From Escherichia phage SKA64, in sequence record OM362897.1: a stretch of DNA of 64,000 nt. The stretch is one strand, 5' to 3'. Shown here piece by piece: positions 6,194-39,773 of the stretch. Under the pieces are notes generated by a model. It ran no database searches. It was given only the letters and a program-made list of their open reading frames with translations, and was not told the origin of the DNA. The position numbers were made by a program, and so were the translations under genes. Positions within the stretch are counted from its first letter, which is position 1; each line of letters begins with the position of its first letter.

Positions 6194-6238
6194 TCGATAT
6201 AAGTATTATATGCTTTTTATTCGTGCTGTCAATGCTTT

Positions 6239-10883: not shown

Positions 10884-11058
10884 TTTTCATACTCTCCAAA
10901 ATTTCACGTTGCCCTTGCTGATAGGCTTTCATCAGAACTACTTTAAGGTTTGTCTCCAAGAGGTCTTCATTGTAATTATACCGCTCCACAACATATGTCA
11001 ATTCATCATAAAGATCAAGAACGGGGTAGAATACAGGGTTATCTGCTAAACGTGCCAT
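10870..11058 (-). CDS. hypothetical protein (62 aa)
   Basis: track ORF trimmed to ATG with AAAGGAGAAA RBS. Confidence 0.5.
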   Translation of the reverse strand: MARLADNPVFYPVLDLYDELTYVVERYNYNEDLLETNLKVVLMKAYQQGQREILESMKNANN

Positions 11059-28788: not shown

Positions 28789-29445
28789 ATGACTATTAAA
28801 CATATCTCTTTTGATGTATGGAACACACTGATCACAGCAAACTCCAATTACGCAGACATGCGAGCCTGGACTATCGCAAAATATGGAGATATTACGGAAG
28901 TTGAAGCAAGAGCAGCTTATAAAAAGATCAAAAAGGAACTGGATAATGCAGCACTTCAAGGCAAAGCCGAGTGTGCAGCATACGCCTGGGAAAGACTTGG
29001 TTCTGAACTTGGGATAACGCCTTGGAAGTCTGCAAAGCTTCGTTTCGAGTGTGAACAGTGGTTCCTTAAGTTTCCACCACACGTAGCCGTAGATCTGCCG
29101 ATGTACTTGCTGTATCTTTCTGGGCGTTATGATTTGAGTATTAAGAGCAATACCAACTTCATATCAGGGGATATTCTGCGTCGTGCTTGTAAGTTTGATA
29201 GTTGGAATTGTTTTGAGTTCACCCATTTCTCGGATGAAGCTTTACTTTGTAAACCAGATCCGCGATTCTTTGCTCGCACGCTCACGTATTCTCCGATCCC
29301 TCTGTTAGGGCACGAAGTGTTGCACGTAGGCGATAGTGAAGAATATGATGGAAAATGTGTTGACTTAGGGTTTAACTTCTGTCATATTAAGAACCCTAAC
29401 GACTTACTAGAGAAACTTAAAAGAGGAGAAATTGTAAATGCGTAA
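28789..29445 (+). CDS. HAD-superfamily hydrolase-like protein
   Basis: motif I FDVWNTL (dehalogenase-type DxYGT-like), motif IV VGDSEEYDG. Confidence 0.55.
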   Translation: MTIKHISFDVWNTLITANSNYADMRAWTIAKYGDITEVEARAAYKKIKKELDNAALQGKAECAAYAWERLGSELGITPWKSAKLRFECEQWFLKFPPHVAVDLPMYLLYLSGRYDLSIKSNTNFISGDILRRACKFDSWNCFEFTHFSDEALLCKPDPRFFARTLTYSPIPLLGHEVLHVGDSEEYDGKCVDLGFNFCHIKNPNDLLEKLKRGEIVNA

Positions 29446-30265
29446 TCAAACTCAAATTTTTGCAAATAAATTTGATGACCTGGAAACTGCTACTTTTGAT
29501 ATCCAAGATTATTCAAAATTGAAATTTGGTAGTAACCAAGCTGCGCGTCGTATGGGTAAAGAATTGGCACTTCAGTTTTTTGCTCAAGTGGCAATGAAAC
29601 ATATTGGGGAACAATTTGTTATCATTCCTTCTCCTTACAACCATGTGCATAATGCTGCAACAATGATGACAGATCATTTTATTAATTACTTCAATATGTT
29701 GCAAGCACAATATGATCAAGGTCGTTCAGCAGAACTGGACATTATTCATCGTAAAGTTAGCTATATCAACGATTATGGTTTCTTGGATAAAGCTAGTCGT
29801 AAGAAACTTATTGATGGGGATACATTCTACTGTAACAAAGAATTCTGGGGTGATAAGAAGCTTGTGTTTATTGATGATGTAAATATCACTGGAACTCATG
29901 AAGACAAACTGATTGAGATCCTTGATGAAAATCAAGTTAAAAATGATGTTTACTTCTTGTATTTTGCAAAATACGAAGGTAATCAAGCAGATACCGAAGC
30001 TAAACTGAATTTTAATTATATTAATACACCAGAAGCGTTTGTTAAAATGATTAATGAAGAACGTGATGCACAGTGTCTTGTTCGTCCTATTAAGTATCTT
30101 ATGGGCCAAAATCACGAAGACTTCAAAATCATTCTTAGCCAATTACCACACTACTATGTAGAGCAACTTTTCTTCGGATGTTTGGGAGAAGGTTACAACC
30201 GAATTTCAAAGTATGCCGAAAACTTTGAATTCTTGGATCGTTACACAAAACAACACATTCTGTAA
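29438..30265 (+). CDS. phosphoribosyltransferase (type I PRTase fold)
   Basis: PRPP-binding motif KKLVFIDDVNITGT. Confidence 0.6.
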   Translation: MRNQTQIFANKFDDLETATFDIQDYSKLKFGSNQAARRMGKELALQFFAQVAMKHIGEQFVIIPSPYNHVHNAATMMTDHFINYFNMLQAQYDQGRSAELDIIHRKVSYINDYGFLDKASRKKLIDGDTFYCNKEFWGDKKLVFIDDVNITGTHEDKLIEILDENQVKNDVYFLYFAKYEGNQADTEAKLNFNYINTPEAFVKMINEERDAQCLVRPIKYLMGQNHEDFKIILSQLPHYYVEQLFFGCLGEGYNRISKYAENFEFLDRYTKQHIL

Positions 30266-30278
30266 TAAGGAGCTAAAA

Positions 30279-30752
30279 ATGCTTAAAATGAAAACAGGTA
30301 ATCTTATTGATGCCGCTAAAGCAGGTGAAGTAACTGTTATTGCTCATTGTTGCAATTGTATGTGTAATATGGGGGCAGGTATTGCCCCACAAATCAAACG
30401 AGCATTTCCTTACGCATATGCAGCAGACTTAGACACAATGGCTGGTGATCAAAGTAAACTAGGTTGTTTTAGTTTAGGGGTGCCAGACGAACAATCAGAT
30501 CCTTTGGTATATAATCTATACGGGCAGTATCGTTATGGATACAATGCTAAAGGTCGTCAGTTGGACTATGATGCACTTTACGATGCACTAATAGCTATGG
30601 CTAACGATTTGCTTCTCCGTGACCAAAAATGTAAGATCGGCTTACCTATGATTGGCGCTGGATATGCTGGAGGTAATTGGGCTATCATCCAAGTGATGAT
30701 TGAAGAAACTTTAGTAAAAACAGGTCACGATGTGACTATTTATAAACTTTAA
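30279..30752 (+). CDS. macro-domain protein (ADP-ribose binding/processing)
   Basis: start at ATG 30279 after TAAGGAG; N-terminal segment NLIDAAKAGEVTVIAHCCNCMCNMGAGIAPQI and C-terminal LPMIGAGYAGGNW resemble macro-domain signatures. Confidence 0.5.
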   Translation: MLKMKTGNLIDAAKAGEVTVIAHCCNCMCNMGAGIAPQIKRAFPYAYAADLDTMAGDQSKLGCFSLGVPDEQSDPLVYNLYGQYRYGYNAKGRQLDYDALYDALIAMANDLLLRDQKCKIGLPMIGAGYAGGNWAIIQVMIEETLVKTGHDVTIYKL

Positions 30753-30764
30753 GAGGAGATTAGT

Positions 30765-30986
30765 ATGGGTGTTTTTGCAGGTATTGTTGCAGTGGTAAGC
30801 TTTTTTGTTATTGCTTTTATGCTTAGTTTGATTCCAGCTTGGTTACTGTTGCTGGCTTACAACTATGTTGCTGAAGTTATGGGTCATGCAGATATCACTG
30901 TCCCAGTAACCTTCTGGACCGTGGTTTGTGTTTCGTTTATTCTGGCTGTATTACGAGGAATCTTTTCCTCTCATTCAACAAAATAA
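30765..30986 (+). CDS. small membrane protein (73 aa)
   Basis: ORF track; GAGGAGA RBS; two hydrophobic helices. Confidence 0.6.
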   Translation: MGVFAGIVAVVSFFVIAFMLSLIPAWLLLLAYNYVAEVMGHADITVPVTFWTVVCVSFILAVLRGIFSSHSTK

Positions 30987-30989
30987 GTG

Positions 30990-31017
30990 TTGACATAGTT
31001 CTTAAAAAGAGTAAGAT
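30990..31017 (+). promoter_or_regulatory. sigma70-like promoter
   Basis: TTGACA-N16-TAAGAT. Confidence 0.6.
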
Positions 31018-31029
31018 ATATCACATGAA

Positions 31030-31048
31030 GCGGGGAATAGTTCCCCGC
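31030..31048 (+). promoter_or_regulatory. PeSL-like 5' leader stem-loop (only plus-strand copy)
   Basis: GCGGGGAA-TAG-TTCCCCGC between promoter and AGAGGAGAAAAG RBS. Confidence 0.55.
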
Positions 31049-31065
31049 AAAGAGAGGAGAAAAGA

Positions 31066-32040
31066 ATGCAACTTGGTTTCCCCATTATTGATGTAGTTGT
31101 TTTAGTTGGTATTTTAGCATTGTCTATTGGTATCGATTTCTTTGGTCACAAAGAAAATAAAGAAATTTCATTCAAATCCGCAGTTGATTGGTCGATCTTT
31201 TGGATTGGTGTATCATTAGCTTATTATGGTTTTGTATACTTCCAACATGGTGCCGATTTTGCTAACTTGTTTTTAAGTGGATATGTGTTGGAAAAATCTT
31301 TGTCGGTAGATAACTTAGTAGTATTTGTAGCAGTATTCGCAAGTTTTGGTATTAAAAGCACACACTTGCAGCACAAGATTCTACTTTGGGGTATTGCAGG
31401 TGCGATTGTCTTCCGAGGTGTGTTTGTAGCAGTAGGCACTTACTTGTTAAGTTTGGGCTGGTATGTTAATATCTTCTTCGGTGCGGTCATCCTTTTCTGT
31501 GCAGCTAAAATGGTATTTGCTGGAGATAATGACGCAGAAGTTGATTACTCTAAACACTGGGCTACCCGTATTGTTCGTAAACTGTTCCCTGTATCTAATA
31601 AAATGGATGGGGAGAAGTTCTTCACAATCGAAAATGGTGTTCGTGTAGCAACTCCAGCTTTGGTTTGCGTATTCGTGATGGAAATGGTGGATGTAATCTT
31701 TGCAGTAGATTCGGTTCCAGCGGTGATCGCAGTGACACAAGAACCCCTACTTGTATTCTCTTCGATGTTATGTGCAATCTTAGGTCTACGTGCTCTGTTC
31801 TTTGTTCTTAGTGTCGCACTGAAGTATCTGGTTCACTTGGAGAAAGCAGTTATTGTGGTTCTGGTGTTTGTAGGCGTTAAACTGATGTATCACCCGTTTG
31901 CAGAAACATTGCATGAGAAAATGAGTTTCCTGCCAGCACATATTGATCCAACTATTAGTATGTATATCGTGCTTGGTACTTTGGCCCTTGGTGTTATTGC
32001 AAGCTTTATCTTCCCTGAAAAAGAAGAAGCTACTATTTAA
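31066..32040 (+). CDS. TerC/Alx-family integral membrane protein
   Basis: multi-pass membrane protein; LSGYVLEKSLSVDNLVVFVAVF and FGAVILFCAAKMVFAGD blocks resemble TerC/Alx family. Confidence 0.8.
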   Translation: MQLGFPIIDVVVLVGILALSIGIDFFGHKENKEISFKSAVDWSIFWIGVSLAYYGFVYFQHGADFANLFLSGYVLEKSLSVDNLVVFVAVFASFGIKSTHLQHKILLWGIAGAIVFRGVFVAVGTYLLSLGWYVNIFFGAVILFCAAKMVFAGDNDAEVDYSKHWATRIVRKLFPVSNKMDGEKFFTIENGVRVATPALVCVFVMEMVDVIFAVDSVPAVIAVTQEPLLVFSSMLCAILGLRALFFVLSVALKYLVHLEKAVIVVLVFVGVKLMYHPFAETLHEKMSFLPAHIDPTISMYIVLGTLALGVIASFIFPEKEEATI

Positions 32041-32045
32041 TAAAT

Positions 32046-32070
32046 GAGCCTCCTTCGGGAGGCTATTTTA
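32046..32070 (+). terminator. rho-independent terminator
   Basis: AGCCTCC-TTCG-GGAGGCT followed by ATTTTAT. Confidence 0.65.
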
Positions 32071-32082
32071 TAGGAGAGACTT

Positions 32083-32433
32083 ATGAGTAATTTTGATGAA
32101 ATTCAAGAACTTGTTTGGGATTTATCTGGTGATGTGGATTACATTTCAGATTATCTTTCAAAAGTTTACCCTGGGGTAAGCGTTATGATTGTGACCAAAG
32201 ATCCAATTAGTTTGCCTCCCAATGTTGTAGCTTGTTGTGGAAGTGGTTCAGGAGAAGTAGAGCCTGTATCTCGTTGGGAATTAACTAAAGCTGTTTCAAA
32301 ACGAAACGGTGAAGTTTTGAATATTGATATTGAGCAAATATGGACTTCTCCAGCAGCCAAATGGAATGATCCAAATGGTTGGGATTTGTTCTTCTGGGAT
32401 AATGAGACTGATGATGAGGTGTTTTTAAAATGA
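32083..32433 (+). CDS. hypothetical protein (116 aa)
   Basis: ORF track; AGGAGAGA RBS. Confidence 0.6.
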   Translation: MSNFDEIQELVWDLSGDVDYISDYLSKVYPGVSVMIVTKDPISLPPNVVACCGSGSGEVEPVSRWELTKAVSKRNGEVLNIDIEQIWTSPAAKWNDPNGWDLFFWDNETDDEVFLK

Positions 32434-32675
32434 AATACTTGTTGGTTGTGTTTGAAAATATCTGTTTTGCAATAGGGTTGTTTGTTGTAATTTTTGTATT
32501 GACAAGCGTAATCAACGGCAGTAAAGTGAGTTTATACCGAGATGGAGAGCAACTTTATTGCTTCTCTGGAGATTTCAAACACAGATGTATTAATAGCCAA
32601 AACGAGGAAAGCAAATATGAAAAAACTAGCCCTGATTTTAATTGGTTGTATCTTTTTAACAGCTTGCGAGGATGA
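32430..32675 (+). CDS. small membrane protein (81 aa), overlaps next gene
   Basis: ORF track; ATGA start overlap; hydrophobic N-terminus; 3' end overlaps lipoprotein gene by 59 nt. Confidence 0.35.
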   Translation: MKYLLVVFENICFAIGLFVVIFVLTSVINGSKVSLYRDGEQLYCFSGDFKHRCINSQNEESKYEKTSPDFNWLYLFNSLRG

Positions 32676-33054
32676 AACAAATCCTGCACAATACCAACAA
32701 CCTCCTCAACAATACGCTCAACAAGGATCTGACGGAGATACAACTATTATCAACAATGGTGGCGGTTCTAGTAGTAGCGGTGTTGGTGAGTTTGCTACAG
32801 GTATGTTGTTAGGGCATATGATGAGTGGCGGTAGTAATCGTAGCAGTGGGGATTATAACGATAACAGAACGATTATTAATAAGCATTATAATACACCTAA
32901 ACCGAAAACTAATTTTTATGGTAAGCCTAAACAAGAGATAAAAACTTATGAAAAGCCGAGACAAACTTTTAAAACAAATAGTAGCTATACAACTCGTAAA
33001 TCTTACAATAGCCCTTTAAGTAAAAAGAGTTCATCTCGTAGCAAGCGACGTTAA
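32617..33054 (+). CDS. lipoprotein with Gly/Ser-rich linker
   Basis: start ATG 32617 after GAGGAAAG; signal peptide plus lipobox LTAC; GGGSSSSG low-complexity segment. Confidence 0.6.
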   Translation: MKKLALILIGCIFLTACEDETNPAQYQQPPQQYAQQGSDGDTTIINNGGGSSSSGVGEFATGMLLGHMMSGGSNRSSGDYNDNRTIINKHYNTPKPKTNFYGKPKQEIKTYEKPRQTFKTNSSYTTRKSYNSPLSKKSSSRSKRR

Positions 33055-33068
33055 TAAGGAGAAAAACA

Positions 33069-33662
33069 ATGACAATTTCTATTCGTACTTCCATTACAGG
33101 TGTTAAAAGTTTGCCTAATGCTTTGCAAATCACACGTGCTTTGAGGGATACGTTCTCTGCTGTGGATGAGCATAAGATGCTCGATAATCTCTCAAATTGG
33201 CCCTATTTTCATTATTTTAAAAATGAAGACGACGAGTTTATAGACGCTGTTTCTTACGGTTATGATTTCGGTAAGGAGGTTTCCCCTGAAGAATTTGTAG
33301 CTACGGTGTTCCCAAACGGTTTGCCTACTCGCAGTAAACGTAAAAAAGGACCAAAAAACAAGAAACGTGCTACTAATAAAGCTACCATTTTCTTTACTGA
33401 TGGCACACAATATACGATTAAAGACTTTGAAGAGGTATCTTATACAGCAGGTGGGAGTCTTTCTTTCTACACCATCAAAAAACAAAACTATACGTTCAGC
33501 CATGTTTCTAACATGATTGAAATGTTAGTAGAAGATATTGAAAGCGTGGCTGTGTTAGGTATGCATAAAAGCTTTTTAATTACAAATATTTCAGATTTCA
33601 GTGCAAGTTTATCTGGCCCTGATTTTGAAGCCACGACCACGCATTTCGCTTTTAAGGTGTAA
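33069..33662 (+). CDS. hypothetical protein (197 aa)
   Basis: ORF track; TAAGGAGAAAA RBS. Confidence 0.6.
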   Translation: MTISIRTSITGVKSLPNALQITRALRDTFSAVDEHKMLDNLSNWPYFHYFKNEDDEFIDAVSYGYDFGKEVSPEEFVATVFPNGLPTRSKRKKGPKNKKRATNKATIFFTDGTQYTIKDFEEVSYTAGGSLSFYTIKKQNYTFSHVSNMIEMLVEDIESVAVLGMHKSFLITNISDFSASLSGPDFEATTTHFAFKV

Positions 33663-33665
33663 GTT

Positions 33666-34256
33666 ATGCATACCGAGAGAGACTTGCAACTCTTGTGGTG
33701 GGAAGTGATGCAGGAAATAAAAGAAGATTTTCCTGTTTACTACAACATGTTACGTGAAGCAGGATATAAAGCTTGTGTTAGAAACAAAGTGAATAACTCT
33801 TTCGGTTGGTGCAACTACCGAGATAAAATTGTTGTTGTAAATTGGCACTTGCATAAGAACTCCACAAGAGATATGATCGTGGATACAATGAAGCACGAAA
33901 TTGCTCATGCTATTGATGGTTGTATGGGTAAGTTTAGTAGGCACGGTGCTCATTGGCAAAAACTGGCAGCAGAATTAGGGGCTAATCCTAAAGCCACTTC
34001 CAAAGAGCCGTTGAACCACGAATATAAATATGTTCTTGTTCTGGTAGATAGGTTTGCGACAAGATGTGTTAGAGGTTATAATCGTAAACCTAATCGCATG
34101 TACCCAGGTAAGCAACCTAATATGTGGTTGAAATCAGATAAAGAAGGGACCGAAGGAAAATTATGGTTGTATAAATGGGACGATTGGGTTAAAGTAGCTA
34201 AAGAGTACGGTGTTTCACCATATATAAGAGATGCAGAAGAGGAGAATGAAGAATGA
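33666..34256 (+). CDS. SprT-like zinc metalloprotease domain protein
   Basis: HExxH motif in MKHEIAHAIDG followed by HGAHW. Confidence 0.5.
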   Translation: MHTERDLQLLWWEVMQEIKEDFPVYYNMLREAGYKACVRNKVNNSFGWCNYRDKIVVVNWHLHKNSTRDMIVDTMKHEIAHAIDGCMGKFSRHGAHWQKLAAELGANPKATSKEPLNHEYKYVLVLVDRFATRCVRGYNRKPNRMYPGKQPNMWLKSDKEGTEGKLWLYKWDDWVKVAKEYGVSPYIRDAEEENEE

Positions 34257-35365
34257 CAAGTCCATTTTTAAAAGCAGCTACTGGTGGTCAGAAGAAGCCT
34301 GAAATGAGCGTATTTGCTGCAACAACAGATGCAAGTAAATCTGTATTCGCTCCAAGCGTGTTAGATGCCAGTCCTGTTTATGCACCAGCGGCACCGCAAG
34401 AAGTTCCAGTTTTGCCTTCTATGACCCGACAAGAGATTGAAGAGATTGGGGCAGAGGCAGGAACAACCTTGCGTTCCTTGAATGCCGAGGTGTTAAAACA
34501 TCAACGTAGTAATCAAGGCGATCAGATGAGTGAACGACTCACAGCTTTGATTAAACAGGCAAAACAACTTGATCCAAACTCTATTAAACAAAGCAAGGGT
34601 ATTACTAAACTCATTAAAAAAGTTATGGGTATGAAAGAAGACCTGTTCGGGGAGTTTGATAATGTTAATAACCGTATTGAAGAGTTGGTAAAGAACCTTC
34701 AAATGGATATTCGCAAAGAAGAAGATTCCTTGGTATATCTTGAAAAGCTACATCAAGCTATTGGACAATATGCTGCAAGTTTGAACCGAGATATGCAGCT
34801 TCTAACAGCAACCTATGAAAAAGAAGAACAAGCTTTGGCTGCTCTTCCAGAAGATGCAGTAGAACAGCGACAAGTGATCCGAGATACTTTGGATCTTCTG
34901 GAGATTCGTATTGCAGATTTAAAAGCATTGCGCCTACTGTGTGTCCAAATGGGACCGCGTGTACAAGGTATGCAAAAAGTTTCTGCAAGCTTAATGCGAT
35001 CTGCGCGTAACATAGTAAATAATGTTATTCCTGCTTACTCTGCTAACTTCTCAATGTATATCGAGAGCTTACGTCAAATGAAAGCAGCAGAGACGCAGAA
35101 TAACGTTCTTGATGAATTTAACCTGGCAATTAAACTGGGTAGCGATCTTGCCACACAGAATCAGATCGAAGCAGCAGCACTGGCTAACCGTCAAGTGTTG
35201 GATATTGAAACTCTGCGTCACGATCAGGAAAACTTGGTTAAGATGCTGGAAGAAACTAACCGCATCAATACGGAAGCCCGTGCTGCTCGTGTTGATTATA
35301 TTAATGAAGTTCAATCTCTGGAAGACGGGATGGTAGCTGCTGTGAAACGAGGGCTTGGTAAATGA
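34253..35365 (+). CDS. coiled-coil protein, TelA-like candidate
   Basis: 370 aa, largely helical with heptad-like repeats; assignment is contextual (sits in Ter-type cluster). Confidence 0.3.
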   Translation: MTSPFLKAATGGQKKPEMSVFAATTDASKSVFAPSVLDASPVYAPAAPQEVPVLPSMTRQEIEEIGAEAGTTLRSLNAEVLKHQRSNQGDQMSERLTALIKQAKQLDPNSIKQSKGITKLIKKVMGMKEDLFGEFDNVNNRIEELVKNLQMDIRKEEDSLVYLEKLHQAIGQYAASLNRDMQLLTATYEKEEQALAALPEDAVEQRQVIRDTLDLLEIRIADLKALRLLCVQMGPRVQGMQKVSASLMRSARNIVNNVIPAYSANFSMYIESLRQMKAAETQNNVLDEFNLAIKLGSDLATQNQIEAAALANRQVLDIETLRHDQENLVKMLEETNRINTEARAARVDYINEVQSLEDGMVAAVKRGLGK

Positions 35366-35559
35366 GAATCCGTATCTATATAATTGATGAAGACATTGGT
35401 GTCCGTTATGATGACGAAAAACGATTCGCACCGATGGGAGGCATATATCCCCCAAGTGTTCTAGCAGTTTGTCGTGATTGTTATATTTATGAAGGTTGTC
35501 GTAACTTCCGTAAATTCGAACTCCTTGCAGATATTGACTTCAATGAGGAGGAGGAGTAA
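35362..35559 (+). CDS. hypothetical protein (65 aa)
   Basis: ORF track; overlapping start/stop. Confidence 0.5.
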   Translation: MRIRIYIIDEDIGVRYDDEKRFAPMGGIYPPSVLAVCRDCYIYEGCRNFRKFELLADIDFNEEEE

Positions 35560-35732
35560 TGAAAATATTACGAGTGAATATTGAAACTGCTTGGTGTGGA
35601 TGCAATGAGGTTGTGGATATCGAAATTGAAGATGATATGTCTCAAGAGGATATAGAAGATCTTGCACACGAAACCTTTCAGGATTATTGTAATTACGGGT
35701 TCCATATTTTAGAGGAGGAAGAAGATGTATAA
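35559..35732 (+). CDS. hypothetical protein (57 aa)
   Basis: hand-translated; GGAGGAGGAG RBS; start overlaps upstream stop, and stop overlaps the next start. Confidence 0.4.
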   Translation: MKILRVNIETAWCGCNEVVDIEIEDDMSQEDIEDLAHETFQDYCNYGFHILEEEEDV

Positions 35733-36123
35733 TCCAACAGGTATTCTTTTAAAACTTACAGTAACAGACCCTACTCTTTTCATCAAGTTAGCAAGTGGTG
35801 AAGTTTATGAAGTAATGAAAGATGATGACGGTTGGTGTTATCTTTGTGGCTACTTCCTCTGTGATGCAGAAGAGTTAGAATCCATTGTAACTAAAGGTTT
35901 TTATGAAGAACCAGGGTTCCGTGTGGAAACTACGCAGAAACCTGATACCATTACGTTGACTCGACAGGAACTGATCACAATCATTGAAGATGCTTTTATT
36001 GATGGCTGGAATACACAAGATAATGACTGGGGTGGACCCGAAGCTTTTCTGGAACATCATAAAGCTTATGGAGAATTTTGTGAAACCACTGTAGCTCTTG
36101 ATAATCTGAAGGAGGGTTTGTAA
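35725..36123 (+). CDS. hypothetical protein (132 aa)
   Basis: ORF track; GAGGAGGAAGAAG RBS. Confidence 0.6.
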   Translation: MYNPTGILLKLTVTDPTLFIKLASGEVYEVMKDDDGWCYLCGYFLCDAEELESIVTKGFYEEPGFRVETTQKPDTITLTRQELITIIEDAFIDGWNTQDNDWGGPEAFLEHHKAYGEFCETTVALDNLKEGL

Positions 36124-36686
36124 TGGGTTGTTTTAGCTTTTTGTGCAAAGAATCGGGCAAAGCTGCCCTTTCTACTTCTTTCGACGGATCACCTTGCTAC
36201 CTCTTTCTTTTGAAGGACGGTGTTGTTATTGAAGAGATGTATGGCAACTATGATAGTTATGGTTGTGTTTTCTCTGGAAAGGAGGATGAAAATGGTGTTC
36301 GTGAACGATTTGAATGGGCTATGGATTGGAGTAAGGTTTGTGATTTGATGCATTCCTCAAATCCAAGAGACGGTATCGCTATGGTGCTGGAAGAGTACTT
36401 TACAGGTGAAATCCCTACAGAACAATCTGACGGAGATCCTAACCAAGGTTGGGGTGATGGTGAAGAAGATCCAGATTGTTTTTTCAGCACAGAAAAGAAT
36501 AAGTTTAAACGTGTTGACAACCCTTATCACAAAGTGCATAATACTCTCATTGAAACAGAAGATGACAAGATGGAAATTGAAGAAGATGATCCTCTTGTAA
36601 CACTTCCTATAAGTGAGTTACAAAAGATCACTAAGGAAGCTTACGATTTGGGCTTCAAAATTGGTAGAGGAGGTATGCGTGTTTAG
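36123..36686 (+). CDS. hypothetical acidic protein (187 aa)
   Basis: ORF track; GGAGGG RBS. Confidence 0.6.
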   Translation: MGCFSFLCKESGKAALSTSFDGSPCYLFLLKDGVVIEEMYGNYDSYGCVFSGKEDENGVRERFEWAMDWSKVCDLMHSSNPRDGIAMVLEEYFTGEIPTEQSDGDPNQGWGDGEEDPDCFFSTEKNKFKRVDNPYHKVHNTLIETEDDKMEIEEDDPLVTLPISELQKITKEAYDLGFKIGRGGMRV

Positions 36687-36957
36687 ATTCAATATTCAAG
36701 AAGAAAAAAGTCAAGATTTACCTATTGCTTTCGAAGATCTTGACGTAGGGGCAACATTCATGTATTATGATGCCTATGAAGACGCAGGGTTGGATACGTA
36801 CCGTAACTTGGTGTTCATTAAAAATTCCACAAACAGTGCGATTTGTATTAATGGATCACTAGCACAACGAGGCTATACTCATTGCATCCCACCAGATACA
36901 AATATGGTGGAAGTAGATTTAGAAGTTACCAATATTACACTTAAGAAGGAGAAATAA
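36679..36957 (+). CDS. small protein, paralog 1 (92 aa)
   Basis: GTG start after AGAGGAGG; paralog of 37979..38248 (DLDVG.TF.Y...). Confidence 0.5.
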   Translation: MFRFNIQEEKSQDLPIAFEDLDVGATFMYYDAYEDAGLDTYRNLVFIKNSTNSAICINGSLAQRGYTHCIPPDTNMVEVDLEVTNITLKKEK

Positions 36958-36958
36958 T

Positions 36959-37753
36959 ATGTCCGAGAAAATCAGCCTGAAAAAACGTCAAGAAAACCTT
37001 GCTTTCTCTCTGAAAAAGAATAAGAACCTGAATGAAGGTAAGATTGTTCTTCGTGTAGCATGTGCTCTAGATATTTCTGGTAGTATGCATGGTCTATATT
37101 CTAGTGGGGTAGTGAGTGATTTTGTAGGTAAACTGCTTCCTTTTGGTATGTTGTTCGACGATAATCAACAAATTGATATGTGGGCCTTCAATACGAGTTC
37201 CCAAGAGCTTACTCCAGCAACAGCAGACGTTTACGACGACTATGTTGGTAAATGTATGCGTAATGTTCGTATCGGAGGTGGAACAAATTACGCCCCTGTA
37301 ATGGCAGATATCTACGATGAGTATTTTGGCACTGTTACCAAATATATTACCACTAAACAAGTGGTACAAGAGGAGGCTCCAAAGAAAGGCTTCTTTAATC
37401 GTCTGCTTGGTAAAACTGAAACAGTGTCTGTAGAGCGTGAAAAAGTTGTAGCTGTATCAGAACCAGGTGCTGACGTTACCCCTGGTGTTGTATTCTTCCA
37501 GACGGATGGTGAGAATGGTGATCCTAGTGCTGTTCGTCGTCTTATCGAAGAGAATAAGAATAAACCTATTTATTGGTTCATGGTTGGCGTTGGTAATGAG
37601 AAGTTTGGCTTCCTGAAAGAACTGGCAAATGCTTATGATAATGTTGGTTTTATTGGCATTAAAGATTTAGACTTGACAGATTCAGAGCTTTATGACAAAC
37701 TCTTATCTGAAGAGTTCGGAGAGTGGGTTGTTAAAGTAGGTGCTAAAAAATGA
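36959..37753 (+). CDS. von Willebrand factor A domain protein (TerY-like)
   Basis: MIDAS motif DISGSM; N-terminal ISLKK/FSLKK repeat shared with TerD gene. Confidence 0.7.
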   Translation: MSEKISLKKRQENLAFSLKKNKNLNEGKIVLRVACALDISGSMHGLYSSGVVSDFVGKLLPFGMLFDDNQQIDMWAFNTSSQELTPATADVYDDYVGKCMRNVRIGGGTNYAPVMADIYDEYFGTVTKYITTKQVVQEEAPKKGFFNRLLGKTETVSVEREKVVAVSEPGADVTPGVVFFQTDGENGDPSAVRRLIEENKNKPIYWFMVGVGNEKFGFLKELANAYDNVGFIGIKDLDLTDSELYDKLLSEEFGEWVVKVGAKK

Positions 37754-37998
37754 TCGACGAGCTTGCCTCTCAAGTCATAGAAAATTATTGGCGCGAGAGA
37801 GAAGCTTTCATTATGCGCAGTCTCAAAGAGTATTTCATTGGGACTGTGCGAATGGAAGATATTGTAAGTAGAGTGGAGATTCATGTATGGCCCGATTATG
37901 AAGAATGGGTTGACAAAGAAAATGAAAATGCTATAATTCTTCGTATATACAAACCGGAGATAACATTAGGAGGAAGAAGTGTTAAACTTCGAAATTGA
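37750..37998 (+). CDS. hypothetical protein (82 aa)
   Basis: ORF track. Confidence 0.55.
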   Translation: MIDELASQVIENYWREREAFIMRSLKEYFIGTVRMEDIVSRVEIHVWPDYEEWVDKENENAIILRIYKPEITLGGRSVKLRN

Positions 37999-38248
37999 TG
38001 AGCAAAAAGTAAATAAACGATGCCTTACCATTAAAGATTTGGATGTAGGAGATACTTTCGTCTATGAAAATGCATTTGACGAAAATGGTTTAGACCTTAG
38101 TGAAATCATTGTTTATTTAAAAGTAGATGATGGGGAAAATGATTATTCTGCTGTAGAACTAAACCATCATGCACAATTAGTATCAATCCAAAGCACATCT
38201 AAGCTTTTGGAAGTAGAATTGACTGTAACTGGTATTACACTTAAATAA
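37979..38248 (+). CDS. small protein, paralog 2 (89 aa)
   Basis: GTG start after GGAGGAAGAA. Confidence 0.5.
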   Translation: MLNFEIDEQKVNKRCLTIKDLDVGDTFVYENAFDENGLDLSEIIVYLKVDDGENDYSAVELNHHAQLVSIQSTSKLLEVELTVTGITLK

Positions 38249-38263
38249 TAGAGGAGACAAAAG

Positions 38264-38866
38264 ATGACTGATAAAATTTCCCTGAAAAAAGGCTCTAGCG
38301 AAAAAATTTCCCTGAAGAAGGTTGCTCCGGCTCTGAAAGAACTGCGCCTGGAATTCTCTTGGAAGTCTGATTCTAAACTGGATCTGGATGTAAGTGCACT
38401 GGTTTGTCGTCACAATGCCGCTGGCAATCCTGAAATGCTGTCTGCACGTCATCTTGTTTGCTATGCTAACAAGTTTGATCCTGAACGTTCTACCTTCGCT
38501 GGTGACGATGTTCGTGATGGCACTGGCAGCATGGAGCAGATCGATATTACTCTGGCTAAAATCTCTCCTGATGCACAAGAGATTGCCTTTGTTCTGACCA
38601 TTGATGATGATACAGGTCTGAAACGTTTTGGTCATGCTTCTGAAGGTATGCTTAAAATCTTCGACTCCGAGCGCAATGTGGAAATTCTGGATTTTGACTT
38701 CCTGGCTCCTGAAGTAGCTGGCAACACAATCTGCCACGTGGCTTCCTTGGTTCGTGAAGATGGGGAATGGAAGCTGAAAGCATATGGTGTAGGCAAAGCT
38801 GGTCTGGATATTTGTGATGTGGTGATGGCCTTCGGTGGTAAAAAAGAATGGTATGAATGTCCATAA
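38264..38866 (+). CDS. TerD-domain protein
   Basis: ISLKKGSSEKISLKK...LDLDVSALVC N-terminus and GEWKLKAYGVGKAGL C-terminus resemble TerD family. Confidence 0.8.
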   Translation: MTDKISLKKGSSEKISLKKVAPALKELRLEFSWKSDSKLDLDVSALVCRHNAAGNPEMLSARHLVCYANKFDPERSTFAGDDVRDGTGSMEQIDITLAKISPDAQEIAFVLTIDDDTGLKRFGHASEGMLKIFDSERNVEILDFDFLAPEVAGNTICHVASLVREDGEWKLKAYGVGKAGLDICDVVMAFGGKKEWYECP

Positions 38867-38885
38867 TAATTAACAAATGATTTTG

Positions 38886-38912
38886 AGGGGGAGAAATCCC
38901 CCTCTTGCAATA
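38886..38912 (+). terminator. rho-independent terminator candidate
   Basis: GAGGGGG-AGAAAT-CCCCCTC then TTGCAAT. Confidence 0.5.
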
Positions 38913-38933
38913 AAGCCTCTATCGTGTTATACT
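38905..38933 (+). promoter_or_regulatory. sigma70-like promoter
   Basis: TTGCAA-N17-TATACT ahead of lysin gene. Confidence 0.55.
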
Positions 38934-38965
38934 AGAAATTCGTTAACTTAAAAAGGAGGCAAAAT

Positions 38966-39487
38966 TTGCTGATAAAAAACTTTGTAACAGTTGCGTTACT
39001 ATCCTTAACTGCTTTTACATTTACACCTGTTGTGGCGAAAGCCGAAGCTGCAAACGTAAAAACCGCTAAAGTAGTTCACAAATGTACAAAGCAATATAAT
39101 GATAAAATTCTATTAGCTTGTGCAATTTACGCAGAAGGTCGCGGTCTGGGTAAAAAAGGAATGAATGCCGTTGGGAATGTGGTAATCAACAGAAGAAATG
39201 ATACCTACTTCCCTAACACAGTCAGAGGGGTCTTGTTCCAGAAAGGGCAATTCTCATATGCGAAAACTTTTAACGTAACAGAGAAAGATAAGTGGCAGGA
39301 AGCAAAAGCAATAGCGGAGCGTTTACTTTATTTAGAGAAACATTTTCCTGAATTGCGGTCTGTTTTAGATGTTACTAAAGGTGCTCTATACTTCAAGAAA
39401 CGGAATATAAGGACACACTGGGAACGTGATATGCGTCTTGTTTATCGAGATAAAGTGCATGGTTTCTATCTACCAAAGGGGAGTTAA
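38966..39487 (+). CDS. SleB-like cell-wall hydrolase with N-terminal signal/anchor (endolysin candidate)
   Basis: TTG start after AAAGGAGG; hydrophobic N-terminus; AIYAEGRGLGKKGMNAVGNVVINR and VLFQKGQFS resemble SleB-type hydrolase. Confidence 0.65.
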   Translation: MLIKNFVTVALLSLTAFTFTPVVAKAEAANVKTAKVVHKCTKQYNDKILLACAIYAEGRGLGKKGMNAVGNVVINRRNDTYFPNTVRGVLFQKGQFSYAKTFNVTEKDKWQEAKAIAERLLYLEKHFPELRSVLDVTKGALYFKKRNIRTHWERDMRLVYRDKVHGFYLPKGS

Positions 39488-39488
39488 A

Positions 39489-39773
39489 ATGCAAGAAGAT
39501 AATACTGTTGTTGTAGCAAGTTACCTGGTTGTCGGTCTTACTGAAGAGGATGTATACTACACCCGTAAGCATTTAGAAGCATACGCTACTTTGTTTATGG
39601 AAGATGAAAAGGATGTAGATAAATATAGCATTGACATGATCAACGACAGTATTTATCCTTGTATGGTTCTTAAAGTAGATGCTGTGTTGTGGGAGCGTTT
39701 TGCAAGGACTCATGATGCTGTAGAATGCTCCGCAGTAATGTCTCAAAACAACATTTTAGGGGAGATTCATTGA
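39489..39773 (+). CDS. hypothetical protein (94 aa)
   Basis: ATG at 39489 after GGGGAG; C-terminal part of track ORF 39426..39773. Confidence 0.5.
   Translation: MQEDNTVVVASYLVVGLTEEDVYYTRKHLEAYATLFMEDEKDVDKYSIDMINDSIYPCMVLKVDAVLWERFARTHDAVECSAVMSQNNILGEIH

Follow-up and report, generated by a model that had tools for sequence, protein, structure and literature searches.

The DNA analysed here, called the window in the following, is a stretch of 64,000 nucleotides of a Phapecoctavirus which contains a full Ter cluster with HAD, PRTase, Macro, TerC, SprT-like, TelA, TerF-type vWA and TerD genes. TerC, TelA, the TerF-type vWA protein and TerD are encoded together between positions 31066 and 38866, all on the plus strand, and many other unrelated small ORFs are scattered through the cluster. 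Two small genes, small A and small B, were predicted to lie directly before the vWA gene and directly before TerD, respectively, and the coordinates agree with this placement. The features are as follows.

28789-29445, HAD (weak match), upstream of TerC
29438-30265, PRTase_3, upstream of TerC
30213-30752, Macro domain protein, upstream of TerC
31066..32040, plus strand, TerC membrane protein (PF03741, E=1e-38)
34253..35365, plus strand, TelA (PF05816, E=3e-33)
36514..36542, plus strand, predicted sigma70-like promoter with near-consensus TTGACA-17-CATAAT (11/12), 137 nt upstream of small A, in the 187-aa ORF
36667..36673, plus strand, GAGGAGG ribosome-binding site of small A, read from the sequence
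36679..36957, plus strand, small A, the pre-vWA paralog (92 aa, GTG start; PHROG 11278 small SH3-like family)
36959..37753, plus strand, TerF-type vWA protein, 264 aa (PF10138, E=1.6e-37)
37750..37998, plus strand, ORF82 (phrog_22387), 82 aa, lineage-specific, dN/dS 0.13
37910..37937, plus strand, predicted sigma70 promoter with perfect consensus TTGACA-16-TATAAT and a TGn extended -10, in ORF82, 42 nt upstream of small B
37968..37973, plus strand, AGGAGG ribosome-binding site of small B, read from the sequence
37979..38248, plus strand, small B, the pre-TerD paralog (89 aa, GTG start; PHROG 11278), assigned by pairwise match, PHROG, tree, BFVD model and dN/dS
38264..38866, plus strand, TerD-domain protein, 200 aa (PF02342, E=3e-28; 2KXT, E=1.5e-15)
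38885..38904, plus strand, GC-rich hairpin GAGGGGG-agaaat-CCCCCTC, 19 nt after the TerD stop, read from the sequence

Both small genes start with GTG after a GGAGG sequence, as originally proposed, with a spacer of 5 nt in each case. The ribosome-binding site of small A falls within the 3' end of a 187-aa ORF (36123-36686) that shares 8 nt with small A. The stop of small A at 36957 is separated by a 1-nt gap from the start of the vWA gene at 36959, and the final codons of small A, AAG GAG AAA, also serve as ribosome-binding site of the vWA gene. ORF82 (37750-37998), which had been left out of the original prediction, lies between the vWA gene and small B and overlaps them by 4 nt and 20 nt, respectively. 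Small B ends at 38248, ahead of the TerD start at 38264. The same two small coding sequences are annotated in GenBank for phage vB_Ec-G1, and orthologs have ATG start codons. The dN/dS values, 0.11-0.30 for small A and 0.13 for small B, point to purifying selection on both genes, which evolve at 3-6 times the rate of vWA and TerD. The encoded proteins are acidic with a pI of 4.3-4.4.

The two small proteins had been thought to be paralogs sharing a DLDVG.TF.Y...GLD core, and pairwise alignment bears this out. BLASTP yielded 32 identities in 93 positions (34%, E=1e-14), and the Smith-Waterman score of 124 compares with 25.7 +/- 4.5 for 2000 shuffles (maximum 52, z=21.7). Common to both are the core DLDVGxTFxYxxA(Y/F)xxxGLD and the termini M-x-x-F-x-I and (L/V)EV(D/E)LxVTxITLK. 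That the two are spurious ORFs resembling each other by chance, for which nothing speaks except their small size and their GTG starts, has a negligible probability and is refuted by the shuffles, by more than 15 divergent orthologs in which length and motifs are kept, by dN/dS values far under 1 and by a confident AlphaFold (AF2) model. Small A and small B are translated, paralogous genes of a single phage-specific family with a length of about 87-93 amino acids.

The family corresponds to PHROG 11278, the profile of which matches both proteins end to end (small A, E=4.2e-51, residues 1-92 of 92; small B, E=1.4e-44, residues 1-89 of 92). For divergent members phrog_11278 is likewise the best match (E=2e-6 to 3e-22), and weak links to phrog_7832 and phrog_10911 were seen. 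The AF2 model, with a pLDDT of 85, yielded a small SH3-like beta-barrel, five-stranded, strongly bent and antiparallel, of about 60 residues plus a short helix, and with conserved N- and C-terminal tails. Across the family these extended tails read M-x-x-F-x-I and V-(S/T)-x-(I/V)-x-(L/V)-K. The BFVD model of phAPEC8 K7QLS7 (89 aa, 34% identical to small A), which was taken as the counterpart of small B, superimposes on the small A model with a TM score of 0.82-0.84. The SH3-like fold is generic, and small proteins of podophages, which to our knowledge are expected to be without Ter genes, show similar predicted folds. Weak Pfam SH3 matches are also carried by a 132-aa upstream ORF.

The family is small, as 5.8 billion proteins yielded about 30 clusters. 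A profile search of 1.84 billion representatives gave 37 hits, of which only those of about 87-93 aa are genuine. Giant repeat proteins of 665-5697 aa (He_PIG, DUF11, HYR, ankyrin) reached E values down to 7e-27. They are matched through many short partial stretches, belong to unrelated repeat folds according to Pfam and were rejected as additive-repeat artefacts. Rejected as well was the IMG/VR locus L006 (33% over 51 residues), a contig of high GC in which the match is confined to 'VYEAFGLD' within an unrelated protein. The search for related loci with P0037 alone as query found nothing, and sequence searches of Pfam, NCBIfam, PADLOC and PDB gave no match to the small proteins. An origin from the TerD domain is not supported, as the family does not match TerD in Pfam and its hhalign alignment with TerD of the window has a probability of 0.3%; with ORF82, the 132-aa upstream ORF and gp223 of Caulobacter phage CcrColossus the probability did not exceed 0.3% either, and the gp223 ORF is unrelated to the family. 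PDB sequence search gave no matches to the vWA protein. PHROG itself annotates neither function nor fold nor context for PHROG 11278; that the family is linked to vWA and TerD, has a predicted SH3-like fold and divides into two positional subfamilies was worked out here.

Gene order in relatives ties the family to the Ter genes. Context could be read for 15 family genes (two each in the window, phiWec179, PsgM04F, L008 and L011, and one each in phi92, 05F01, L007, L017 and L018), and every one of them lies directly 5' of a TerF-like vWA gene, of TerD, or of a tandem paralog which is itself 5' of TerD. Phage phi92 and Klebsiella phage 05F01 have a single small gene in the order small-vWA-TerD, while distant metagenomic relatives show vWA-small-TerD or vWA-small-small-TerD, the latter exemplified by the tandem pair between vWA and TerD in L011. 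The outgroups L007 and L011, with vWA proteins 46-48% identical to that of the window, have pre-TerD copies only. In the metagenomic variant L020 the small A barrel is lost and vWA, ORF82, small B and TerD are kept. The small gene stays beside vWA or TerD down to a protein identity of 22-30% and the surrounding small ORFs are replaced. These other small ORFs of the region turn over; ORF82, for example, is missing in phi92, 05F01, L007 and L018. In a neighbor-joining tree the pre-vWA genes form a monophyletic clade (79% bootstrap) and all other members are pre-TerD. These trees and gene orders point to the pre-TerD copy as ancestral, with the pre-vWA copy being derived and small B probably being the positionally ancestral copy. 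As the linkage is seen only in one broad, syntenic phage lineage, shared ancestry could account for part of it. Taken alone, the descriptive findings, namely paralogy, fold and linkage, are held with high confidence.

The 64 kb contain 3 perfect sigma70 sites against 0.10 expected. One of these is the site at 37910..37937, a motif conserved in phiWec179, PsgM04F and L008, and this predicted promoter probably drives small B together with TerD. The hexamers of the near-consensus site at 36514..36542 are invariant in phi92 and PsgM04F, although this stretch is conserved coding sequence. The hairpin at 38885..38904 is a possible end of the transcription unit; its T tail is weak and it was not called by the terminator scan. 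The codon usage of TerD is strongly optimal for E. coli (GC3 0.39; CTG for 16 of 19 leucines), sharply unlike that of small B (GC3 0.21; CTG for none of 12 leucines), which argues against equal abundance of the two proteins.

An N-terminal (K)ISLKK repeat had been noticed in both large proteins and is indeed present, with KISLKK at residues 4-9 and FSLKK at 16-20 of the vWA protein and KISLKK at residues 4-9 and 14-19 of TerD. Together with the paralogy of the small genes this had led to the proposal that a two-gene unit, a small gene followed by an ISLKK-headed large gene, was duplicated to give small A-vWA and small B-TerD. A duplication of the small gene is well supported, one of the pair of small and large gene is not. 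It is true that each small paralog stands directly 5' of a protein starting with M-x-x-KISLKK, and that each pair may have a promoter-like site of its own. The vWA protein (PF10138) and TerD (PF02342) are, however, members of different families with unrelated folds, and only their first approximately 25 residues align in BLASTP (E=0.013-0.11). In the vWA protein residues 1-30 are an extension carrying the tandem motif, with the Pfam domain beginning at residue 31. In TerD the N-terminus KISLKK-x4-KISLKK forms the canonical strands beta1-beta2 and aligns with VSLSKGG-NVSLSK of Klebsiella TerD 2KXT. The tandem motif also precedes the vWA domain in plasmid TerF, in a Caballeronia plasmid vWA protein, in CcrColossus and in Pseudomonas phage Kremar, the Ter clusters of which have no annotated small gene, and the h-x-L-x-K head is found in TerD as well as vWA proteins of bacteria, plasmids and phages without annotated small genes. 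It is therefore an ancestral trait of the TerD and TerF-vWA families rather than the scar of a local duplication. The serine codons of the motif differ, AGC in vWA and TCC in TerD, which excludes recent copying at the DNA level. In addition, the supposed units are separated by ORF82, which is related neither to the small family nor to the 187-aa ORF upstream of small A, and relatives contain single or tandem small genes with the pre-TerD copy apparently ancestral. Domain assignments and comparative gene orders thus refute the duplicated unit as it was stated, and it is considered very unlikely.

The preferred explanation is that the small proteins serve the phage Ter module as accessory or adaptor subunits particular to this lineage, forming an add-on to the stress or exclusion module of TelA, TerF-type vWA, TerC and TerD in Stephanstirmvirinae and related uncultured phages. 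The original site of the small gene would probably have been the small B position, between vWA and TerD and directly upstream of TerD, small B and TerD probably being cotranscribed from the consensus sigma70 promoter that precedes small B. Small A would have arisen by duplication in the ancestor of Stephanstirmvirinae and then have become translationally coupled to vWA, and the pre-TerD copy may later have been lost in the phi92-like and 05F01-like lineages. Within the Ter complex the barrels would bind protein in this accessory or adaptor role, with each subfamily tuned to its downstream neighbor, A to vWA and B to TerD; it is gene linkage that suggests these interactions. In this way they may help to assemble or regulate a proposed sub-membrane assembly of TelA, vWA and TerD, which is thought to guard the infected cell against superinfection or envelope stress. 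Speaking against it are the compact Ter operons elsewhere without an annotated member, the codon usage and evolutionary rate of the small genes, the loss of the small A barrel in L020 and the generic nature of the SH3-like fold. Taken as a whole, with the proposed mechanism included, this explanation is tentative and is given slightly less than an even chance.

A less probable reading, though one with appreciable weight, is that the small genes are independent early or 'moron' genes, host-takeover factors for example, which are found among the Ter genes by descent and the adjacency of which has no mechanistic meaning. The confinement of the family to Stephanstirmvirinae-like genomes would fit this, as would the compact Ter operons elsewhere without an annotated member, the codon usage and evolutionary rate unlike those of the neighbors, the many unrelated small ORFs dispersed in the cluster and the commonness of generic SH3-like small proteins in phages. 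It is harder to reconcile with a place beside vWA or TerD that is held while nearby small ORFs are replaced, with new copies (the A-type and the tandem pair of L011) that remain inside the vWA-TerD interval, and with the tight packing, seen in the ribosome-binding site shared across the 1-nt gap to vWA and in a 4-nt overlap in L018. The small proteins might alternatively be regulators rather than structural partners, which for example hold the phage TerD or vWA protein inactive or target host or plasmid Ter proteins via the shared N-terminal h-x-L-x-K hairpin. They are small and acidic, with low-expression codons beside a highly codon-optimised TerD, the N-terminal motif is common to TerD and vWA of phages, plasmids and bacteria, and the C-terminal tail of the small proteins (ITLKK, ITLK or VSVK) resembles it. 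This idea is nevertheless purely speculative, PADLOC gave no matches, and in the few lineages at hand the tails show no visible co-variation with the motifs of the partners, so it is regarded as improbable. Within each genome the hairpin does co-vary between TerD and vWA. A bolder form of the adaptor explanation, which is a long shot, is that the barrels are dedicated readers of the tandem h-x-L-x-K hairpin of TerD and vWA, possibly mimicking it with their C-terminal (I/V)-x-(L/V)-K tail via beta-strand augmentation, and so nucleate or gate the sub-membrane complex of TerD, vWA and TelA.

The Ter system, which is linked to resistance against tellurite, colicins and phages, occurs widely on plasmids and chromosomes and in phages. 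A small and easily expressed family found only beside TerD and TerF-type vWA offers candidate interaction partners, which could be used to probe how these two proteins are assembled or regulated. As genomes with zero, one or two copies in different positions exist, a natural experiment is available. Should the barrels prove to be hairpin readers, no protein partner of the TerD N-terminus would have been identified before them, and they would offer a tractable way into the Ter mechanism. Should the small genes be unrelated passengers, the gain would be limited to annotation, with PHROG 11278 given a fold and a context and the duplicated-unit idea corrected.

Among the closest known systems are the SH3-like small beta-barrel adaptor domains of FeoA, the DtxR/IdeR C-terminal domain, Tudor, KOW and the ribosomal L2 barrel. 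The Ter system has been described as TerC, TelA, TerF-vWA and TerD together with PRTase and HAD signal genes (Anantharaman et al. 2012, as summarised in PMC7824862). Passages of PMC7824862 and PMC8386662 report abbreviated phage Ter operons with TelA, TerF-type vWA, TerC and TerD in jumbo and other phages and propose superinfection exclusion or stress tolerance as their role; the window shares with the operons described there TerC, TelA, TerF-type vWA, TerD, PRTase, HAD and Macro. The small SH3-like proteins are not mentioned in the TerD, TelA and vWA passages of these two papers, and none of the annotated Ter clusters examined in bacteria, plasmids and other phages contains them, the ter cluster of the IncHI2 plasmid included. 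TerF of the terZABCDEF cluster of that plasmid is homologous in its vWA part to the phage vWA protein (27.9% identity over residues 4-257) and carries before it a tandem motif of the same kind, RISLEKK...VSLAKK...VSLTK; the plasmid protein combines a full N-terminal TerD domain with vWA, whereas the phage protein has only the motif extension of about 30 residues. In CcrColossus, Kremar and the Caballeronia plasmid the Ter operons are compact and no small SH3-like gene is annotated, which indicates that the family is not needed for the core Ter function. The Ter module of the window, in contrast, is stretched by lineage-specific small ORFs, among them the genes of the small family, which are present in one or two copies in this lineage.

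Many ~150-kb Escherichia phages of the genus Phapecoctavirus (Stephanstirmvirinae) match the region 36000-39500 at 99.0-99.5% identity. All genes surrounding small A (36679-36957, 92 aa) and small B (37979-38248, 89 aa) are on the + strand. Together with the following neighbours, named by their Pfam matches, the gene set is the component list of a Ter system:

28789-29445, +, HAD-like hydrolase (weak match)
29438-30265, +, PRTase_3
30213-30752, +, Macro domain protein
31066-32040, +, TerC
33666-34256, +, SprT-like protein (metallopeptidase; 4-nt overlap with TelA)
34253-35365, +, TelA
35559-35732, +, DUF7167
36959-37753, +, TerF-type vWA protein (PF10138, E=1.6e-37)
38264-38866, +, TerD (PF02342, E=3e-28)
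38966-39487, +, cell-wall hydrolase

Few phages of ~150 kb would be expected to have a Ter cluster as complete as this one, which includes at 28789-35732 the weak HAD-like match, PRTase_3, Macro, TerC, SprT-like protein and DUF7167. Among the matches to the region 36000-39500, identity of ~99% to genomes of E. coli Phapecoctavirus or Justusliebigvirus is shown by records labelled Acinetobacter phage ABPW7, Campylobacter phage B15/A110a/A150 and Klebsiella phage ZCKP1, and Pseudomonas phage PsgM04F has the phiWec179 type of gene order; the host labels of all these records look doubtful.

The original prediction had described small A and small B as paralogs, one preceding the vWA gene and the other TerD, and this observation stood. 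Its interpretation was only partly supported: the small gene is duplicated, but a duplicated two-gene unit is not supported. Both GTG starts are located exactly 5 nt 3' of a GGAGG-type Shine-Dalgarno sequence, and identical coding sequences were called by the GenBank annotators. The two proteins are 34% identical over their full length (BLASTP, E=1e-14), with a Smith-Waterman score of 124 compared to 25.7 +/- 4.5 for 2000 shuffles (z=21.7). They have in common the core DLDVGxTFxYxxA(Y/F)xxxGLD, the N-terminus M-x-x-F-x-I and the C-terminus EV(D/E)LxVTxITLK. PHROG 11278 is matched over the full length by small A (E=4e-51) and by small B (1.4e-44); their paralogy is already implicit in this family. 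In close phage pairs dN/dS was 0.11-0.30 for small A and 0.13 for small B, showing that they are real coding genes under purifying selection; they evolve faster than the neighbouring vWA and TerD genes (0.02-0.07).

Sequence searches yielded no match of the small proteins in Pfam, NCBIfam, PADLOC or PDB. An AlphaFold2 model of small A from a 21-sequence alignment was confident (pLDDT 85, pTM 0.75) and consisted of five short strands and one short helix. The BFVD model of K7QLS7 from phAPEC8 (89 aa, 34% identical to small A and taken as the small B counterpart) superposed on it with a TM score of 0.82-0.84, and the fold is therefore common to both paralogs. Conservation within the family extends to residues 1-15 and 80-92 of small A, which are not part of the barrel, as would be expected of interaction segments. 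Both proteins are acidic (pI 4.3-4.4). A 132-aa ORF two genes 5' of small A (35725-36123) has weak Pfam SH3 matches in residues 15-39 (E=0.016-0.075) and did not resemble the small family in a profile comparison (hhalign probability 0.2%).

Among 5.8 billion proteins, word-indexed searches recovered no more than ~30 clusters of the family, all of ~87-93 aa. A few more divergent members of ~87-90 aa came from an exhaustive HMM search over 1.84 billion representatives. This search also returned He_PIG, DUF11, HYR and ankyrin repeat proteins of giant size with E-values down to 7e-27, which were rejected as spurious sums of weak partial matches; caution is thus called for when whole-sequence E-values come from small-domain profiles, here a short beta-rich one of 92 positions. 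All members with readable context lie directly 5' of a TerF-type vWA gene or of TerD, the first copy of metagenomic locus L011 via a tandem paralog, in these gene orders:

small A - vWA - ORF of ~82 aa - small B - TerD: the window, phiWec179, PsgM04F, metagenomic locus L008
small - vWA - TerD (one copy, without ORF82): phi92 (Justusliebigvirus), Klebsiella phage 05F01
vWA - small - TerD: metagenomic loci L007 and L018
small - TerD: L017, a contig beginning 45 nt upstream of the small gene
vWA - small - small - TerD: L011 (first copy phrog_11278, E=2e-6)

The two L011 paralogs (1180-1725), 31% identical in this distant relative, are an independent duplication within the same vWA-TerD interval. 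In a metagenomic Phapecoctavirus contig (L020, 782-949) the N-terminus of the 187-aa ORF preceding small A runs in frame into what is left of small A, its last 32 residues (protein P0009, joining ...FDGS to LAQRG...), and the 132-aa ORF is cut to 67 aa. The small A barrel is thereby lost and the genes for vWA, ORF82, small B and TerD remain complete, which suggests, if the assembly is correct, that small A is dispensable.

The model of a duplicated two-gene unit fails on several grounds. The vWA protein and TerD belong to different families and align in their first ~25 residues only (BLASTP, E=0.013-0.11), and ORF82 (37750-37998), an ORF between vWA and small B missing from the original prediction, is unrelated to anything 5' of small A. 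The ISLKK repeats are present at both N-termini as described. In TerD the motif makes up the two canonical strands at the start of the fold and aligns with VSLSKGG-NVSLSK of the solved Klebsiella TerD 2KXT, and in the vWA protein it is an N-terminal extension, as the Pfam domain starts at residue 31. Tandem h-x-L-x-K heads also precede the vWA domain in plasmid TerF (RISLEKK...VSLAKK...VSLTK), a stand-alone Caballeronia vWA protein (MITLEKRAAKVSIVLEKR) and the vWA proteins of Caulobacter phage CcrColossus and Pseudomonas phage Kremar, each genome having a matching TerD head; the motif is therefore a trait of the families and no product of a local duplication. The serine codon families of the window's two heads differ (AGC and TCC), so their likeness is kept at the peptide level and does not stem from a recent DNA copy. 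Compared at 36968-37018 and 38273-38320 of the window and in L007, L011 and L013-L016, the vWA and TerD heads co-vary per genome: the window has I/I, L007 V/V, L011 L/L, CcrColossus INL/INL, and Kremar LDLTK+LNLxK in both proteins. This suggests that throughout the Ter system the two N-termini share a binding site or partner.

In a neighbour-joining tree the pre-vWA copies formed one clade (79% bootstrap), with the other members, all pre-TerD, unresolved outside it. The outgroups L007 and L011, whose vWA proteins are 46-48% identical to that of the window (61-83% among Stephanstirmvirinae), have pre-TerD copies only. The most economical scenario places the family originally between vWA and TerD; a copy would have shifted upstream of vWA in the Stephanstirmvirinae ancestor, and the pre-TerD copy would have been lost later in the phi92-like and 05F01-like lines. 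The pre-vWA copies are all extended at the C-terminus by x-E-K, in small A K-E-K (36943-36957), encoded by the ribosome-binding site AAGGAG of vWA (36946-36951), a sign of tight translational coupling. Pre-TerD members lack it, so that a translation signal determines this stretch of the protein.

Promoters were located as consensus matches, which are not proof. A perfect TTGACA-16-TATAAT with extended -10 TG lies within ORF82 (37910-37937, +), and small B begins 42 nt downstream. The 64-kb window has only three perfect sigma70 sites, against 0.10 expected, the others being at 6205-6232 (-) and 10975-11001 (-). The site in ORF82 is conserved in phiWec179, PsgM04F and L008, whose small B proteins downstream are only 39-47% identical. 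Since phi92, lacking ORF82 and small B, has TTGACT-17-TAAAAT within its vWA-TerD spacer, TerD, with small B where present, is probably a separate early transcription unit. Beyond TerD lies a GC-rich hairpin (38885-38904). An 11/12 match (TTGACA-17-CATAAT, 36514-36542, +) lies in the 187-aa ORF (36123-36686), 137 nt upstream of small A; phi92 and PsgM04F have identical hexamers here, but these fall in the well-conserved coding sequence of peptide KRVDNPYHKVHNT. TerD is strongly codon-optimised for E. coli (CTG for 16/19 Leu, GC 45.1%, GC3 0.39) and small B extremely AT-rich (CTG for 0/12 Leu, GC 31.5%, GC3 0.21), which implies that two genes of what is probably one transcription unit differ greatly in expression level or origin.

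Gene linkage, a predicted fold, selection and copy-number plasticity are what the analysis shows directly. Tentatively, we favour a role of the barrels in the phage Ter module as accessory or adaptor subunits, the A subfamily presumably paired with vWA and the B subfamily with TerD; they may work via their conserved tails. A simple stoichiometric partnership is opposed by the codon optimisation of TerD and not of small B, by the L020 contig keeping the remaining genes without the small A barrel, and by the frequency of the fold among small phage proteins, podophage proteins included. To our knowledge, such podophages would be expected to lack Ter genes. That the small genes are unrelated passengers appears somewhat less likely, and a role of their products as regulators or mimics is improbable.

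In compact TelA-vWA-TerC-TerD operons (CcrColossus, Kremar, a Caballeronia plasmid), and likewise in the IncHI2 plasmid ter operon, the small gene is not annotated. Ter genes have been reported earlier in phages, and two papers propose a role against superinfecting phages or chemical stress (PMC7824862; PMC8386662). Phage-borne Ter modules are already known. We found no earlier description in the literature of how strictly this family is tied to vWA and TerD, of its predicted SH3-like fold or of its division into two positional subfamilies.
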